From the NCBI GenBank assembly GCA_043820105.1, contig JBDREC010000102.1, positions 826-64,825 on the forward strand: a stretch of 64,000 bases of DNA. Reading direction: 5' to 3'. Position 1 is the stretch's first letter. Each line of letters opens with the position of its first letter. Shown here one piece after another: positions 8,660 to 13,357 of the stretch. Under the pieces are notes generated by a model. That model worked only from the letters and a program-made list of their open reading frames with translations. It was not told the DNA's origin and did no database searches. Origin of the DNA: Pseudomonadota bacterium. Lineage in GTDB: Bacteria; Bdellovibrionota_F; JAHFAK01; JBDREC01. Made by a program: the position numbers and the translations under genes.

Positions 8660-9988
8660 TTATTCTTCCAAGATGCTATCAAATGCTTTTTTGTAAGCAA
8701 TTTTTTTGTAAGCACAAAATTTATCTTCAGCCCAAACTGTTTTAGAAGCTTCAAGTGCCTCACCCATGCATCCTGCCTGGCAAAGATTTTGCCAATGACA
8801 GGCCTGGCATTTTTTAATTTTTTTAGTTCTGTTTTGTAAGGCAAAGATTGATTTGTTCATTACTTCAGAATTATTGGTTTTGCTTAAGGTATCTTTATGT
8901 ATATTGCCAAGTAAAAAATCTTTATTCATCAATAAAACACAAGGGTAAACATCACCATTAATATCAATAACAAGTTTTTTTCCAAGAGGACACCAAAAAG
9001 CATCATTGCTTATTTGAGGTGTTATTTTAAATAGCAAACCACTTATTCCACAAGAGATTTTAATAGTTTTTTTCTGTGTTTTATTCAAACCTTCAACTAA
9101 ATTAAAAAAACTGTGATAATCTGAAGTTGTTAAAAAGTTTTTTTCCTTGCAAGCTTTACCTACGACCCTCAATGGCAGGAATCTTAATTGAGGAATTTTA
9201 TTTTTTTCTACGAAATTAATTATTCTAAGTAAATCATCAATATTGTCTTTCATGACTGTAGTTGCAATGGTTAAATTCTTAAGCATTCCAATTTCTTTCA
9301 AAATATCAATTGCTTTGATTACTTTTTTATAGCTTCCTTTTGATCTTATTTTATCATGGATTTTTTCATTTGATCCATCAAGGCTTATTTGAATGGAAAT
9401 ATTATGTTTTTTGAAGAAAGTTACCCACTTTTTATCTAATAAAGTTGCATTTGTTAAAACTTGAATATTTAGTTTTTCAGAAGAATGCTTAATGATTTCT
9501 TGAAGTTTTGGATGCAAAAGAGGTTCGCCTCCACTTAAGGTCAAGTTTTTACCACCACCTTTAATGAACTCATTTAAAGCTTTTTTAATTACATGCAAAG
9601 GCATTTCATCCTTAACTAAAGGAGACGATGACAAGTAACACTGTTTGCACGCCAAATTACATTTTCGGGTTATATGCAAATAAAGATCACTAAAAAAAGG
9701 TTTTCTAATGTAATTATTGGTACTTTGGAAAAAGCCACTTTTTGTTAATTCACACTGAATATTATCAATATATTCCAATGCTTTGCTTTGTGAAAAATTT
9801 AATTTTTTACATAATGTTCCAACTATATCTTGCTTATCTATATAATTTAAAAGACCTTTTATAATTATAAGTCCAGATTCATTAACCTTAATCCACATGG
9901 GTTTAGAAGATAGTAAAACAATTGAATTTAATTTTGATATAATTTTATTTTCGTAATGATAAAAAGAGCTTGTTTTTGATGAAGGCAT
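8660..9988 (-). CDS. Radical SAM/SPASM peptide maturase with an N-terminal PqqD/RRE-like domain
   Basis: CNLACKQC (CxxxCxxC), GGEPLLHP, QISLDG; SPASM C..GDVYPC...CQAC..QNLCQAGC...C; about 90-aa N-terminal extension resembling PqqD. Confidence 0.92.
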   Translation of the reverse strand: MPSSKTSSFYHYENKIISKLNSIVLLSSKPMWIKVNESGLIIIKGLLNYIDKQDIVGTLCKKLNFSQSKALEYIDNIQCELTKSGFFQSTNNYIRKPFFSDLYLHITRKCNLACKQCYLSSSPLVKDEMPLHVIKKALNEFIKGGGKNLTLSGGEPLLHPKLQEIIKHSSEKLNIQVLTNATLLDKKWVTFFKKHNISIQISLDGSNEKIHDKIRSKGSYKKVIKAIDILKEIGMLKNLTIATTVMKDNIDDLLRIINFVEKNKIPQLRFLPLRVVGKACKEKNFLTTSDYHSFFNLVEGLNKTQKKTIKISCGISGLLFKITPQISNDAFWCPLGKKLVIDINGDVYPCVLLMNKDFLLGNIHKDTLSKTNNSEVMNKSIFALQNRTKKIKKCQACHWQNLCQAGCMGEALEASKTVWAEDKFCAYKKIAYKKAFDSILEE

Positions 9989-10002
9989 ACTTTAAATAAT
10001 TG

Positions 10003-10143
10003 TTATGCTTCTGGAGAAGGAGAACATGCAAAAGCAGGTCCAAATCTATCTTCAATTTCACTGTCAGAAAAGATTTTCAAAACAGGTGCTTCATATTTTT
10101 TCTTTTTTTCATTTCTTTTTTCTTTTTTCACTATTATCTCCAT
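10003..10143 (-). CDS. Putative RiPP precursor peptide (46 aa from ATG 10143, or 42 aa from GTG 10131 after GGAG)
   Basis: MEIIVKKEKRNEKKKKYEAPVLKIFSDSEIEDRFGPAFACSPSPEA: basic N-terminus, YxxPxL RRE-binding motif, ends 14 nt before the rSAM start. Confidence 0.8.
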   Translation of the reverse strand: MEIIVKKEKRNEKKKKYEAPVLKIFSDSEIEDRFGPAFACSPSPEA

Positions 10144-10385
10144 TGTCTCAGTTTTGAAAAATAAAGTAATATATATCTTTGTTTTAAAGATGGATATAAA
10201 AAACAAAAAGAAAGATTATGCAAGAGAAAAAAGGAGGTTTAAAAAAAGTGAAATTTTAGAATAATTGCTTGATTGTTGGTGATAATTCACAAGAATGGAA
10301 TTTGGAAAGTAATACCAAAATATTTATCTTTACTTCTTTTCTTATTTCTTTGAATTATTATTTTTCATTTTATAAATAGATATTT

Positions 10386-12044
10386 ATGTTAAATCAAATT
10401 TACCATAACTGGCAGCTTTTTTTAAGATCTCTAAGTTTTTTAAGACCATATTGGAAACAGTTGCTGGGACTGATTTTACTTTCTCAAATTGTCGTGCTTT
10501 TAGGCTTAATAAGTCCTTATTTAACAAAAATCTTAATTGATGATGCTTATGTGAACAAAGATTTCTCACTGTTTTCGATCATAATTTTAACTATTGCCTC
10601 AATTATACTTGTAAGTGGAGTGCTTGGCGGCATTGTTGAATATTTTAATGGAAAAATAAACCAACGAGTTTATCTAGATATTAACAACAAAATCGTTAAT
10701 ATTCTCATGTCTTTAAGCCTTGATTATCATAAGAGTACTCAAGCTGGCAAAAATCTTTATAAATTATACTTTGATACAGAAGCCTGCGCTAGAATGTTAA
10801 CTGATTATGTAATTCAAGCCTTGAGGCTATTTTTAACTTTTTTAATTACTTTTATTATTGTCTTTTATTTAAATGCAAAAATTGCACTTTTAACATTTTT
10901 CTTGGGAATATTTTTTTATTTTCATGCACTATACTTTTCTAAAAAAAGAAGATCCGTTTTTAGGCAAATAATCTCACAAAGACAGAGTATATTTATAAGG
11001 TTAAAAGATGCTTTTGCTAAAATTTACATGATAAAAGCCTCAGCAAAAGAAGAAGAAGAAAAGAAAATGCATCTTGAGAAACTTAATAAAACAATAGAAA
11101 TAGCATTTGTAGACCTAAGGCTCAAGGTGATTTCATTTTTTTCAGCCCAGGTTATGAAAAGCGCCGTTATTGGTGTTGTTATTTTTTATGGTGGATATTT
11201 GATTTTTCAAAATGAGCTTAGTCTTGGTGTTTTAACTTCAATAATTGTTTATCTGGGAAGACTAGCTGGTTTTAATAGAGAAGTAGGACAACTTGTTCAA
11301 TGGCTAGGAGTTTCCCTGATTTCCTGCGAAAGGCTTGATCTTGTTTTAAAAGAAGAAAAAAGCAGCAACACAAAAACAGGAAAAAATAAAAAAACACCCA
11401 AAACTTTTTGCCCACATATCAAAATAGAAAATCTGTGTTTTTCTTATGATAATGAAAAACAAATTATTTCCAATCTCAATGGAGAAATTAAACCTTTTAA
11501 ATGGACCTTGTTCAGGGGAGATTCTGGATGTGGAAAATCAACAGTGATAAATATGATTTTGGGATTTTACAAACCTCAACAAGGAAAAATCTATCTTGAT
11601 AATGAAAACATTGAAACCCTTGATTCTAATTTTATAAAAGAAAACATTGCCCTGGTTCCACAAGAGCCCAATTTATGGTTTGGATCAATAAAATATAATG
11701 TTACATATTTTAATAGTAAGGCTAAAGATAGTGATCTTCAAAAGATTTTAAAAATAACTGAGCTTGAAAACTTTATTACAAGCCTTGAAAATGGCATAGA
11801 AACCGAAATTGGCGAAGATGCAGGCAAGGTATCAGAAGGCCAAAAACAAAGAATTTCACTTGCCAGAGCTTTATTAAAGAATCCAAAACTTCTTGTTCTT
11901 GACGAAGCATTATCCTTTGTTGACGATAAAACTTCATATAAAATATTAAAAAACATTAAAGACAATTATCCCAATATTACTATCTTATTTATTTCACATA
12001 AAAAAGCTGATCTTGAATTTGCTGATAAGATTGTTGAGTTTTAG
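10386..12044 (+). CDS. ABC exporter (fused TMD and NBD) without a C39 peptidase domain
   Basis: Multiple TM helices; Walker A GDSGCGKST, signature variant VSEGQKQR, Walker B LLVLDEA, ISH switch. Confidence 0.93.
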   Translation: MLNQIYHNWQLFLRSLSFLRPYWKQLLGLILLSQIVVLLGLISPYLTKILIDDAYVNKDFSLFSIIILTIASIILVSGVLGGIVEYFNGKINQRVYLDINNKIVNILMSLSLDYHKSTQAGKNLYKLYFDTEACARMLTDYVIQALRLFLTFLITFIIVFYLNAKIALLTFFLGIFFYFHALYFSKKRRSVFRQIISQRQSIFIRLKDAFAKIYMIKASAKEEEEKKMHLEKLNKTIEIAFVDLRLKVISFFSAQVMKSAVIGVVIFYGGYLIFQNELSLGVLTSIIVYLGRLAGFNREVGQLVQWLGVSLISCERLDLVLKEEKSSNTKTGKNKKTPKTFCPHIKIENLCFSYDNEKQIISNLNGEIKPFKWTLFRGDSGCGKSTVINMILGFYKPQQGKIYLDNENIETLDSNFIKENIALVPQEPNLWFGSIKYNVTYFNSKAKDSDLQKILKITELENFITSLENGIETEIGEDAGKVSEGQKQRISLARALLKNPKLLVLDEALSFVDDKTSYKILKNIKDNYPNITILFISHKKADLEFADKIVEF

Positions 12045-12106: not shown

Positions 12107-13357
12107 ATGACAAAATCACAGCATTTGTGTTTTTTTAAACACATTCTTTTCTTATCATTTATTATAGTTTTATTTGCAAAACCAATCATTGCCACGAATG
12201 CTATCGATTTTAAAGTTTATCAAATTTATGCTTCAGATAAACATGAAAGATCTTTAATCGCAAGCTTTGGAGCTGATATTGTTGAAGTTAACGATAATTA
12301 TGTAATTGCCTTTGTTCGAAAAGATCAAGAAACTTTGTTTGATGCTTTTAATGTCAACTATGTTGATATTACCGAAGACTTTATTGATTATTTTGAAGAC
12401 TTTCCAGCTGATGATAATGCTTACCATTCTGTACATGAAGTAAATGAGTTTTTACACGAAACAGCAGCGCTTAATCCTGAAATTGCAAAAGTTTTTAGTA
12501 TAGGAAAATCAATAGAAGGAAATGATATTCTAGGAATAAAAATTAGTGATAATGTTAATGATGAAGAATTTGATGAGCCTGCTGCATTGTTTCTTGGCAC
12601 CACGCACGCTCGCGAACATCTAAGCACTGAAGTGCCACTTTTCCTTGCTCGATTTTTGGTTGAGGGTTATTCTAAGCGCGATTTTCACCTTAAAGAATTA
12701 ATAGATACACGTGAAATATTTATTTTTCCAGTCCTTAATCCAGATGGTAAAATGTATGATATTGGTGAAGCAGGATTTTCAGGAACTAGAAATTACCAGT
12801 TTTGGAGAAAGAACAGAAGAAAAAACTCAGATGCTAGTCTTGGTGTTGATTTAAATAGAAACTATGATTCAAATTGGGGTGGTCAAGGATCTAGTTCAAG
12901 CCCCAGCTCAGACACTTATCATGGAGAGGCAGCATTTTCAGAGCCTGAAACAGCAGCAATTAAAGACTTTATTTTAGCTCAAAAAAACATTTCAGTTTGT
13001 CTTTCTTATCATACTTTTAGCAAGTTGATTTTATATCCCTGGGGCACAAGCAATGATCCCATTGCAGATGAGAAAGATTTAAATGCCTTTAAAAAAATAG
13101 CAGCTCAAATGGCCCAGTGGACAGGTTATAGACCTGAGCAAGCTTCTGATTTATATATTACTTCAGGTGCAATGATTGATTGGCTATATGCAGACCTCGG
13201 AATCTTTGGTTTTACCTTTGAGCTAGATCCAGCTTCAATGTGGAATGGTGGTTTTTATCCTGGAGATGAAATTATAGAAGAAGTGTTTTTAAAAAATATT
13301 AATCCTGCCCTTTATTTAATTTATTTAGCAGATGATCCAAGAAAGGCTGGAGACTAA
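12107..13357 (+). CDS. Secreted M14 zinc carboxypeptidase (carboxypeptidase T-like)
   Basis: Signal peptide; HARE, RKNR, GVDLNRNY, FSEPET, SYHTFS, FTFEL. Confidence 0.93.
   Translation: MTKSQHLCFFKHILFLSFIIVLFAKPIIATNAIDFKVYQIYASDKHERSLIASFGADIVEVNDNYVIAFVRKDQETLFDAFNVNYVDITEDFIDYFEDFPADDNAYHSVHEVNEFLHETAALNPEIAKVFSIGKSIEGNDILGIKISDNVNDEEFDEPAALFLGTTHAREHLSTEVPLFLARFLVEGYSKRDFHLKELIDTREIFIFPVLNPDGKMYDIGEAGFSGTRNYQFWRKNRRKNSDASLGVDLNRNYDSNWGGQGSSSSPSSDTYHGEAAFSEPETAAIKDFILAQKNISVCLSYHTFSKLILYPWGTSNDPIADEKDLNAFKKIAAQMAQWTGYRPEQASDLYITSGAMIDWLYADLGIFGFTFELDPASMWNGGFYPGDEIIEEVFLKNINPALYLIYLADDPRKAGD

Follow-up and report, generated by a model that had tools for sequence, protein, structure and literature searches.

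A small open reading frame (ORF) in contig JBDREC010000102.1 of a Pseudomonadota bacterium (GenBank assembly GCA_043820105.1), of which a stretch of 64,000 nucleotides was analysed (hereafter ‘the window’), is probably the substrate peptide of a four-gene operon and a member of a large, uncharacterised family. The other three genes encode a radical S-adenosylmethionine (SAM)/SPASM enzyme fused to a predicted recognition element (RRE) of the kind that serves peptides made by ribosomes and modified after translation (RiPPs), an HprK/ScmC-like kinase and a secreted C25 peptidase. Judged by its conservation, the small ORF is a real gene of a widely conserved peptide family and not a chance reading frame. 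The gene content likewise marks the operon as a variant of known RiPP-type logic, in which a presumably RRE-guided radical SAM enzyme and an HprK-like kinase are combined with an unusual C25 peptidase. A literature search over the running text of freely accessible papers returned no description of a radical SAM enzyme, an HprK-like kinase and a gingipain-family peptidase acting on a ribosomal peptide. The enzyme combination is undescribed in that sense, yet the peptide family comprises at least 519 sequence clusters across several phyla, and its variation gives a testable prediction at the level of single residues.

The ORF comprises 67 codons on the minus strand, from a TTG at 10206 to the stop codon at 10005-10003, and contains an internal ATG (10143-10141) and an internal GTG (10131-10129). 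Translation from the ATG gives MEIIVKKEKRNEKKKKYEAPVLKIFSDSEIEDRFGPAFACSPSPEA (46 residues), and translation from the GTG gives 42 residues. An earlier reading of the DNA from its letters alone (the sequence-only reading) had placed the real start well inside the 67-codon frame, citing a GGAG just upstream of GTG 10131. This motif was confirmed, with a spacing of six bases, and a much shorter start is supported. The public gene call on the contig also uses the GTG (P0007, 42 residues); because this is the choice of a gene caller, it is not evidence of the true start. A Shine-Dalgarno-like purine run precedes the ATG in seven of eight homologous small ORFs. The peptide can be divided into a recognition region (Tyr17-Phe34), a hinge (Gly35-Pro36-Ala37) and the tail FACSPSPEA. 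The residues named in the sequence-only reading are all present as described, namely Cys40 as the sole Cys, Ser41, Ser43 (codon 10017-10015) and Phe at 34 and 38. Only 14 bases separate the stop codon of the peptide from the start of the radical SAM gene, and the view that the ORF encodes a precursor-type peptide adjoining its enzymes is supported.

Run against 1.84 billion proteins, a profile built from nine homologues matched 519 cluster representatives at E <= 0.001, of which 53 reached E <= 1e-10. The family extends over Planctomycetota (anammox bacteria), Thermodesulfobacteriota, Acidobacteriota, Chloroflexota and candidate phyla. Its proteins are annotated as hypothetical in the source records; no NCBIfam model matched any of the 16 family peptides tested, and neither Pfam nor NCBIfam holds a family for this peptide. 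Residues were counted by column in the 149 profile matches listed (a 7727-residue protein was excluded), of which 148, the best-scoring matches, were placed in register. The family plan consists of a recognition region, Y-x-x-P-x-[IVL]-x-[TS]-[YF]-[ST]-x-[ED]-[ED], followed by a near-invariant G-P-A hinge and a short Pro-rich tail. The column of Tyr17 holds Tyr in 145 of 148 members, that of Pro20 holds Pro in 146 of 148, and that of Leu22 is aliphatic (I/V/L/M) in all 148; with these three residues the window peptide carries the [Y/W]xxPx[LVI] leader motif bound by RREs, as defined in PMC13381572. Hinge conservation is similarly high (Gly35, 147/148; Pro36, 143/148; Ala37, 138/148).

These counts bear on several features that had been proposed for the core of the peptide. 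A leader/core cut before FGPAF is not supported, since no block of the peptide is more conserved than G-P-A, and the hinge is therefore more likely to be part of the recognition or cleavage region. A C-C cross-link at a Phe was rejected because neither Phe column is conserved: the Phe34 column is mostly aliphatic (L 65, I 50 and V 19, together 134/148) with Phe in only 5 members, and 90 of 148 members have Gln at the position of Phe38. Nor does SPSP hold up as a unit, given that the column of Ser43, three residues past the Cys, is Ser in 38 of the 114 members with the Cys (Cys-type members) and the exact string CSPSP occurs in 19 of them. Ser43 and both Phe residues are, on these counts, specific to the window peptide.

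We also considered whether the small reading frame might be a chance ORF that is not translated. A promoter and terminator scan of positions 9800-10600 gave 4 promoter-like sites against 5.4 expected, and so no excess, which would fit a chance frame; no terminator was detected in this region either, and the scan was uninformative. The conservation data contradict this explanation, which we rejected as scarcely credible. There are 519 related representatives, the peptide keeps its position directly before the radical SAM gene, seven of eight homologues have ribosome-binding motifs, and it is the amino-acid sequence rather than the DNA that has been kept across phyla. In the seven loci that were reached through the radical SAM gene, the eight homologous small ORFs scored 66-80 bits against the peptide profile, and the next ORF scored 16 bits.

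The sequence-only reading had proposed Cys40 as the residue for the radical SAM enzyme, and this proposal is supported. The column five residues past the start of the hinge (hinge+5; Cys40) is Cys in 114 of 148 members, with a Cys anywhere in the tail in 122, a frequency that is biased upwards because the profile was built from Cys-type peptides. All nine peptides reached through the radical SAM gene have the Cys. We also ran a degenerate DNA pattern, which covers only the recognition region and hinge and is blind to the Cys, against species genomes. Of the 99 stretches that it matched, 80 came with 2-kb flanks; these gave 82 distinct sites, of which 67 had at least 1500 nt downstream; 35 of these 67 lie beside an enzyme gene. 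Among the 35 enzyme-linked sites, 21 have both the Cys and a radical SAM gene, 5 the Cys only, 1 the radical SAM gene only and 8 neither. In other words, a radical SAM gene stands beside 21 of 26 Cys-containing peptides and 1 of 9 Cys-less ones (Fisher p = 4e-4, for sites that are not phylogenetically independent). At the eight sites lacking both, no strong radical SAM match was found anywhere on the 4-kb locus; the kinase is kept at all eight, and three of them run directly from peptide to kinase to C25 peptidase. As far as the columns and gene neighbourhoods go, the conserved residue that accompanies the radical SAM enzyme is Cys40.

The other 32 of the 67 sites are orphan copies, often several per genome. 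Near-identical orphan peptide copies occupy nine loci in one Candidatus Brocadia metagenome-assembled genome (L176, L178, L187, L189, L190, L212, L238, L252 and L255; loci, sampled genomes and proteins are numbered L, G and P, respectively). On one deltaproteobacterial contig, three copies follow each other at intervals of about 1 kb (L232-L234). Most peptides in multi-copy genomes have no enzyme gene within 2 kb.

For the kinase, the sequence-only reading had named Ser41 and Ser43 as the phospho-acceptors. Ser41 is supported as a candidate: its column (hinge+6) is the lone hydroxyl-enriched column of the tail, with Ser in 81, Thr in 24 and Tyr in 13 members, that is 118 of 148 (80%) against a tail background of 22%. 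In the 34 members without Cys at hinge+5, the same column has Tyr in 11, Thr in 7 and Ser in 5. A hydroxyl residue is found at hinge+6 in 32 of the 35 enzyme-linked sites, the exceptions being L177, L191 and L231. The expectation that Cys and Ser would be conserved across homologous precursors is thus borne out for the Cys40 and Ser41 columns and fails for that of Ser43. Ser41, and not an SPSP unit, is the likeliest conserved candidate for the kinase site. The natural variation of the family acts as a mutagenesis series, in which members without the Cys also lack the radical SAM gene but retain the kinase and the C25 peptidase, and it predicts Cys40 for the radical SAM enzyme and Ser41 for the kinase. 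We infer this assignment of the two enzymes to the two adjacent residues.

The radical SAM enzyme has a CxxxCxxC motif at Cys110/114/117 and seven conserved cysteines in the SPASM region, all of which are invariant in its relatives. Its best solved relatives are CteB (5wgg, E 2e-17) and then the anaerobic sulfatase-maturing enzyme (anSME; 4k37, E 8.5e-15). Among NCBIfam models, it scored 146 bits against anSME (TIGR03942; cut-off 349), 137.5 against PapB (cut-off 340), 130 against DynA, 126 against StsB (cut-off 625) and 92 against AlbA (cut-off 850). In seven orthologues, the N-terminal region has a Pfam PqqD match above the cut-off (six of the seven N-termini tested, together with L016).

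The Walker A residues G117-K118-T119 of the kinase, as well as S134-D135, are invariant in 10 of 10 sequences. Its predicted structure (predicted local distance difference test score, pLDDT, 81) matched ATP-PEPCK (E 4.5e-6) and HprK/P (E 7e-5 to 4e-4) in Foldseek. The P-loop, the acidic catalytic residue and the fold place the kinase in the HPr kinase/phosphorylase (PEPCK-like) superfamily, and a score of 25 against a cut-off of 240 for TIGR00679 indicates that it is not a bona fide HprK. The ScmC model PF27840 matched the kinase homologues P0003 and P0004 and the nearest named Atlas clusters, and it did not match the window kinase itself. A word-indexed search with the kinase found three relatives besides itself, a count that understates the family, because profile and genome searches found more. 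The C25 peptidase has a lipoprotein-type signal peptide and candidate catalytic residues His630 and Cys664; G629-H630-G631 and C664 do not vary among the four sequences compared. Its best NCBIfam model is PorU, although the score of 234 bits does not reach the cut-off of 420. By their conserved key residues, all three enzymes appear intact.

The four genes travel together in several phyla. The order peptide, radical SAM, kinase and C25 was found at six loci, namely the window, L014, L016, L100, L102 and L104; the hosts include an Aminicenantes metagenome-assembled genome (L016) and three metagenome contigs. In a sample of 61 genomes, the peptide occurs in three (G000, G044 and G050), and a full-length kinase (>400 bits) occurs in the same three only. 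The best matches to the radical SAM protein in this sample are in G050 (34% identity) and G044 (29%). Alignment-based scans with this protein gave 485 relatives in species genomes (best 80 kept) and 87 in metagenomes (80 kept), and a single-protein scan of genome contigs gave no match. One further locus, L017, ends inside the radical SAM gene. In G044, L029 and L032, PqqD is encoded by a gene of its own and the cassette lacks the peptide.

Two observations on related loci can be added. In L105 (2383-5361), a discrete PqqD gene and four tandem Cys-rich precursors are followed by a radical SAM gene and a weaker kinase homologue (70 bits); the leader of these precursors has the same [FY]-x-x-P-x-I-x-S-Y-S. 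The distant loci L015 (8499-8612) and L032 (1123-1218) share a stretch upstream of the PqqD gene whose conservation extends to more than one reading frame, which points to a conserved element that is non-coding and not a gene.

From these data we propose the following pathway. The PqqD-like N-terminus of the radical SAM enzyme would bind the YEAPVL strand of the peptide, and the enzyme would then act on Cys40. A thioether of the sactipeptide or ranthipeptide type seems the most likely product, because CteB is the closest solved relative. The kinase would phosphorylate Ser41 with ATP, on the model of LppK and the paeninodin kinases, whose target is one core Ser. After export, the extracytoplasmic C25 peptidase may cut at or just past the G-P-A hinge, which would free an octa- to dodecapeptide, for example (GPAF)ACSPSPEA. 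The constant enzymes of the family are the kinase and the C25 peptidase, with the radical SAM enzyme as an accessory that appears when the tail carries the Cys. Taken as a whole, the sequence-only reading keeps its precursor role, its short start and its use of Cys40 and Ser41, and loses the SPSP unit, the Phe cross-link and the cut before FGPAF.

Besides the upward bias in the Cys frequency mentioned above, a number of observations weigh against this proposal. Five Cys-containing sites have no radical SAM gene within 2 kb, with flanks of only 2 kb, and the Cys-less site L176 has a weak radical SAM match (131 bits). No peptide was found beside the close radical SAM homologues at L096-L099, L103 and L106; the kinase is also missing at L097-L099. 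The N-terminus of the window's own radical SAM enzyme has no PqqD match at E <= 1, and its alignment to a discrete PqqD with hhalign was co-linear but weak (probability 3.5%). The NCBIfam scores against anSME, PapB and DynA are nearly tied and all far below their cut-offs, so that they do not decide the class of reaction. A hydroxyl residue is lacking at hinge+6 in 30 of 148 representatives and in 3 of 35 enzyme-linked sites. Furthermore, the kinase is found beside tails that have neither Ser nor Thr, with Tyr at hinge+6 (e.g. L194 and L211), and LppK took neither Thr nor Tyr (PMC13381572). The recognition region also has equally conserved hydroxyls, with Ser or Thr in 132 of 148 members at the Ser26 column. 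Given the tails free of Ser and Thr, either the kinases accept Tyr or their target lies elsewhere, for example in the Ser26 column.

The last point leads to an alternative that we regard as unlikely, in which the kinase spares the SPSP tail and instead phosphorylates a Ser/Thr of the recognition region (Ser26), or serves the peptidase as an ATP-dependent recognition or scaffold protein. In addition to the family-wide conservation just given, the Ser26 column was Ser or Thr in all nine peptides of the first homologue set. At loci without the radical SAM gene, and so without the fused RRE (e.g. L194), the recognition region is kept and needs another reader, and the kinase follows directly. However, the known HprK-like kinases of RiPPs act on core residues, and T-Y-[ST] is the segment that pairs with the RRE in lasso and LPP leaders, which explains its conservation without phosphorylation (both PMC13381572). 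That the catalytic Ser-Asp and the P-loop are conserved speaks for a functional enzyme. We retain Ser41 as the preferred kinase site.

A second alternative concerns the radical SAM reaction, in which an anSME-like enzyme would oxidize Cys40, within C-S-P-x-P, to a formylglycine-type aldehyde or another product without a cross-link. Sulfatases have the signature C-x-P-x-R (substrate motif C/S-x-P/A-x-R), which the tail C-S-P-S-P resembles, and anSME is both the top NCBIfam match and the second-best solved relative of the enzyme. Pro occurs two residues past the Cys in 59 of 114 members and four residues past it in 69, and a lone Cys without a conserved acceptor residue suits oxidation better than a ring. 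However, the anSME score lies far below its cut-off and is nearly tied with those of the thioether-forming PapB and StsB, and it is CteB, the best solved relative, that has an N-terminal RRE, as predicted for the window enzyme, whereas anSME has none. The Arg expected four residues past the Cys is absent from C-S-P-S-P, the Pro two residues past it is missing in about half of the members, and a second Cys, absent from the window peptide, follows 4-6 residues after the first in 66 of 114 members, which is typical of cross-linked peptides. This evidence makes formylglycine-type oxidation quite improbable, and thioether formation at Cys40 remains our preferred assignment.

Among described systems, the LPP (linear polyphosphorylated peptide) pathway of Bacillota (LppA/K/B/S/D/N; Popov et al., Nat Commun 2026; PMC13381572) comes closest. 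Its precursors have a YxxPxVL leader motif, LppK adds several phosphates to the core Ser3, and HprK-like kinases more generally phosphorylate a single core Ser of RiPP precursors with YxxPx[LVI] leaders (PMC13381572). The LPP peptidase cleaves the unphosphorylated precursor poorly (PMC13381572). Both systems have a small precursor with a Y-x-x-P-x-[VLI] leader motif of the RRE-binding type, an HprK-like kinase, whose target in LPP is a single Ser close to where the core begins, a leader peptidase that is dedicated and non-classical, and a nearby MsbA-like ATP-binding cassette (ABC) exporter (PMC13381572). Genes like S24/S26 signal peptidases also lie inside two cassettes of our family (L014:6247-6795 and L103:1208-1801), recalling the SpI-like peptidase of LPP. 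Unlike in LPP, however, the predicted RRE here is fused to a radical SAM/SPASM enzyme, and the article mentions no radical SAM, SPASM or C25 protein (PMC13381572). The peptidase here is a large secreted C25 enzyme, whereas that of LPP is SpI/SipW-like; the rest of the leader motif differs, and the hosts belong to uncultured phyla of the Gram-negative type rather than to Bacillota (PMC13381572). None of the other marks of LPP (an SpI/SipW-like leader peptidase, a discrete RRE and a nucleoside triphosphate transferase) was found among the 10 neighbouring window proteins scanned.

Lasso peptides of the paeninodin type are similar in that an HprK-like kinase acts on a precursor with a [Y/W]xxP motif that is read by a PqqD-like RRE (PMC13381572). 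They differ in that there is no lasso cyclase or B2 peptidase here and the window peptide ends in Glu-Ala. The phosphorylated residue of paeninodin-type peptides is the C-terminal Ser. The maturases of ranthipeptides and sactipeptides (CteB 5wgg, PapB and StsB) have an N-terminal peptide-binding domain like the one predicted for our enzyme and, as here, are encoded directly after a short Cys-containing precursor. However, the window enzyme stays below the cut-offs of the curated models (PapB 137.5/340; StsB 126/625), the window peptide has one Cys and no recognisable acceptor motif, and neither a kinase nor a C25 peptidase is part of those pathways. The same combination of classes is seen in SynChlorMet, an NCBIfam/Pfam family with an HprK-like ScmC, a PqqD-like ScmD and the radical SAM/SPASM proteins ScmE and ScmF, and homologues of the window kinase carry the ScmC model. 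The radical SAM enzyme nevertheless scored only 90.7 against ScmE and 83.3 against ScmF (cut-offs 400), and the operon has a single radical SAM gene and a C25 peptidase. SynChlorMet was not mentioned in any of the papers listed by our literature search. As to the anaerobic sulfatase-maturing system, the differences lie in the TIGR03942 score (146 vs 349) and in the tail C-S-P-S-P, which has no Arg.

Next, we considered the surface proteins encoded near the peptides. Upstream sequence of at least 700 nt was available for 85 distinct peptide sites, and at 46 of these a gene on the same strand ends within 900 nt upstream of the peptide and encodes a large secreted protein. The N-termini of these proteins differ (FG-GAP, Big_1 and beta-helix), and their last ~85 residues form one conserved domain, here called the cargo domain. 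Examples are L239:1-1947, L212:369-1802 and L255:403-1836 within L176-L255, and further ones occur at L279-L281, L286 and L287. No Pfam or NCBIfam model matches the cargo domain. It is predicted to fold as an Fn3/Ig sandwich of generic type (pLDDT 91.5; best Foldseek E 7e-3), and matches to such a generic fold neither link it to nor separate it from the sorting domain of the type IX secretion system (T9SS). In the 61-genome sample, the cargo domain was found in 20 genomes at E <= 1e-5, and at 80 bits or more only in G000, G044, G050 and G052. The peptides of G044 sit between cargo genes and C25-like genes. In fused forms (L183 and L220; P0059, P0076 and P0094), a large protein ends in the whole recognition region and Cys tail of the peptide, in the order Fn3-like domain, Cys motif, hydrophobic helix (membrane anchor), Lys/Arg-rich stretch and peptide. 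The genome of the window encodes three cargo proteins on other contigs (L275:3053-3883, L276:2293-3402 and L276:3864-4256), none of which adjoins a peptide gene. After the Fn3-like domain, these proteins continue with a [ST][AT][GS]-C-[GA] motif, then a membrane helix and finally a basic tail, a layout that looks like a tripartite C-terminal sorting signal; the cargo proteins of G050 end in a Lys/Arg-rich tail.

This context suggests that the peptide and the PorU-like peptidase may act on these surface proteins. If the link is functional, it would be a new way to process or decorate cell-surface proteins, and would take PorU-like sortases beyond type IX secretion. A stronger version, which we hold to be possible but doubtful, is that the peptide, once modified by the kinase (and by the radical SAM enzyme where the Cys is present), and the C25 peptidase form a previously unrecognised sorting or tagging system for surface proteins outside Bacteroidota and do not mainly produce a free natural product. 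The cargo would then be diverse secreted proteins ending in an Fn3-like domain with a polybasic tail, and the peptide would either be attached to the cargo, as an acceptor or tag, or regulate the peptidase or cargo processing. Such a system is consistent with the position of cargo genes upstream of 46 of 85 peptide sites, with cargo N-termini that differ as they do with sorting signals, with the gene order in G044 and with the fused forms, in which the peptide is a C-terminal tail behind a membrane anchor. It also fits the confinement of the strong cargo-domain matches to the three cassette genomes and G052, and the fact that the best NCBIfam model of the C25 protein is the T9SS sortase PorU. 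However, the peptide genes of the window and of G050 are grouped with the enzyme genes, and the cargo genes are located on other contigs. The cargo domain at E <= 1e-5 occurs in far more genomes than the cassette, its fold is generic, the PorU score is below the cut-off, and gene adjacency does not demonstrate joint function. PorU of Bacteroidota is comparable in being a C25 peptidase and in its link to surface proteins that share a C-terminal beta-sandwich domain. It differs in that the PorU model is not matched at its cut-off (234/420), the cargo domain does not match the T9SS sorting domain in Pfam or NCBIfam, the hosts here are not Bacteroidota, and T9SS has no small modified peptide, kinase or radical SAM enzyme. 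The substrate-peptide operon described above remains our preferred reading.

At L290 and L291 in G052, which has no cassette, the Fn3-like domain is followed by a classical C-terminal sorting domain of type IX secretion. The cargo-domain profile gave a weak second match on this sorting-domain tail.

Table. Location of the peptide gene, its putative modification sites and the neighbouring features in the window
Feature	Position	Strand	Details
Precursor (substrate) peptide	10003..10143	-	Based on sequence, homologues and column statistics
Cys40 and Ser41 codons	10021..10026	-	Cys40, 10026-10024; Ser41, 10023-10021; proposed sites for radical SAM enzyme and kinase
GGAG Shine-Dalgarno-like motif	10138..10141	-	Six bases 5' of GTG 10131; overlaps ATG 10143-10141
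Radical SAM/SPASM enzyme, 442 residues	8660..9988	-	Radical_SAM 99 bits; SPASM 39 bits
Diverged PqqD-like (RRE) N-terminal ~100 residues of radical SAM enzyme	9689..9988	-	Predicted from PqqD scores of orthologues
HprK/ScmC-like P-loop kinase, 354 residues	7593..8657	-	Hpr_kinase_C E 3e-4; HprK_rel_A 52 bits (cut-off 200)
Secreted C25 (gingipain/PorU-like) cysteine peptidase, 768 residues	5177..7483	-	Peptidase_C25 255 bits
ABC exporter (fused permease and ATPase), divergent	10386..12044	+	Possible peptide exporter
Secreted M14 zinc carboxypeptidase	12107..13357	+	Peptidase_M14 233 bits; link to peptide doubtful
Very acidic secreted protein, 659 residues	951-2930	-	FG-GAP-like repeat

The ABC exporter and the M14 carboxypeptidase were considered as parts of the cassette core and rejected because they are not conserved. 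A homologue of the exporter was found beside just one other family locus (L223), with short flanks elsewhere, and no homologue of the carboxypeptidase was found in any other locus fetched. Among sequencing runs, three groundwater metagenome DNA runs contain small shares, and no RNA run was listed. The very acidic secreted protein does not have the C-terminal domain shared by the cargo proteins, and is encoded downstream of the cassette.

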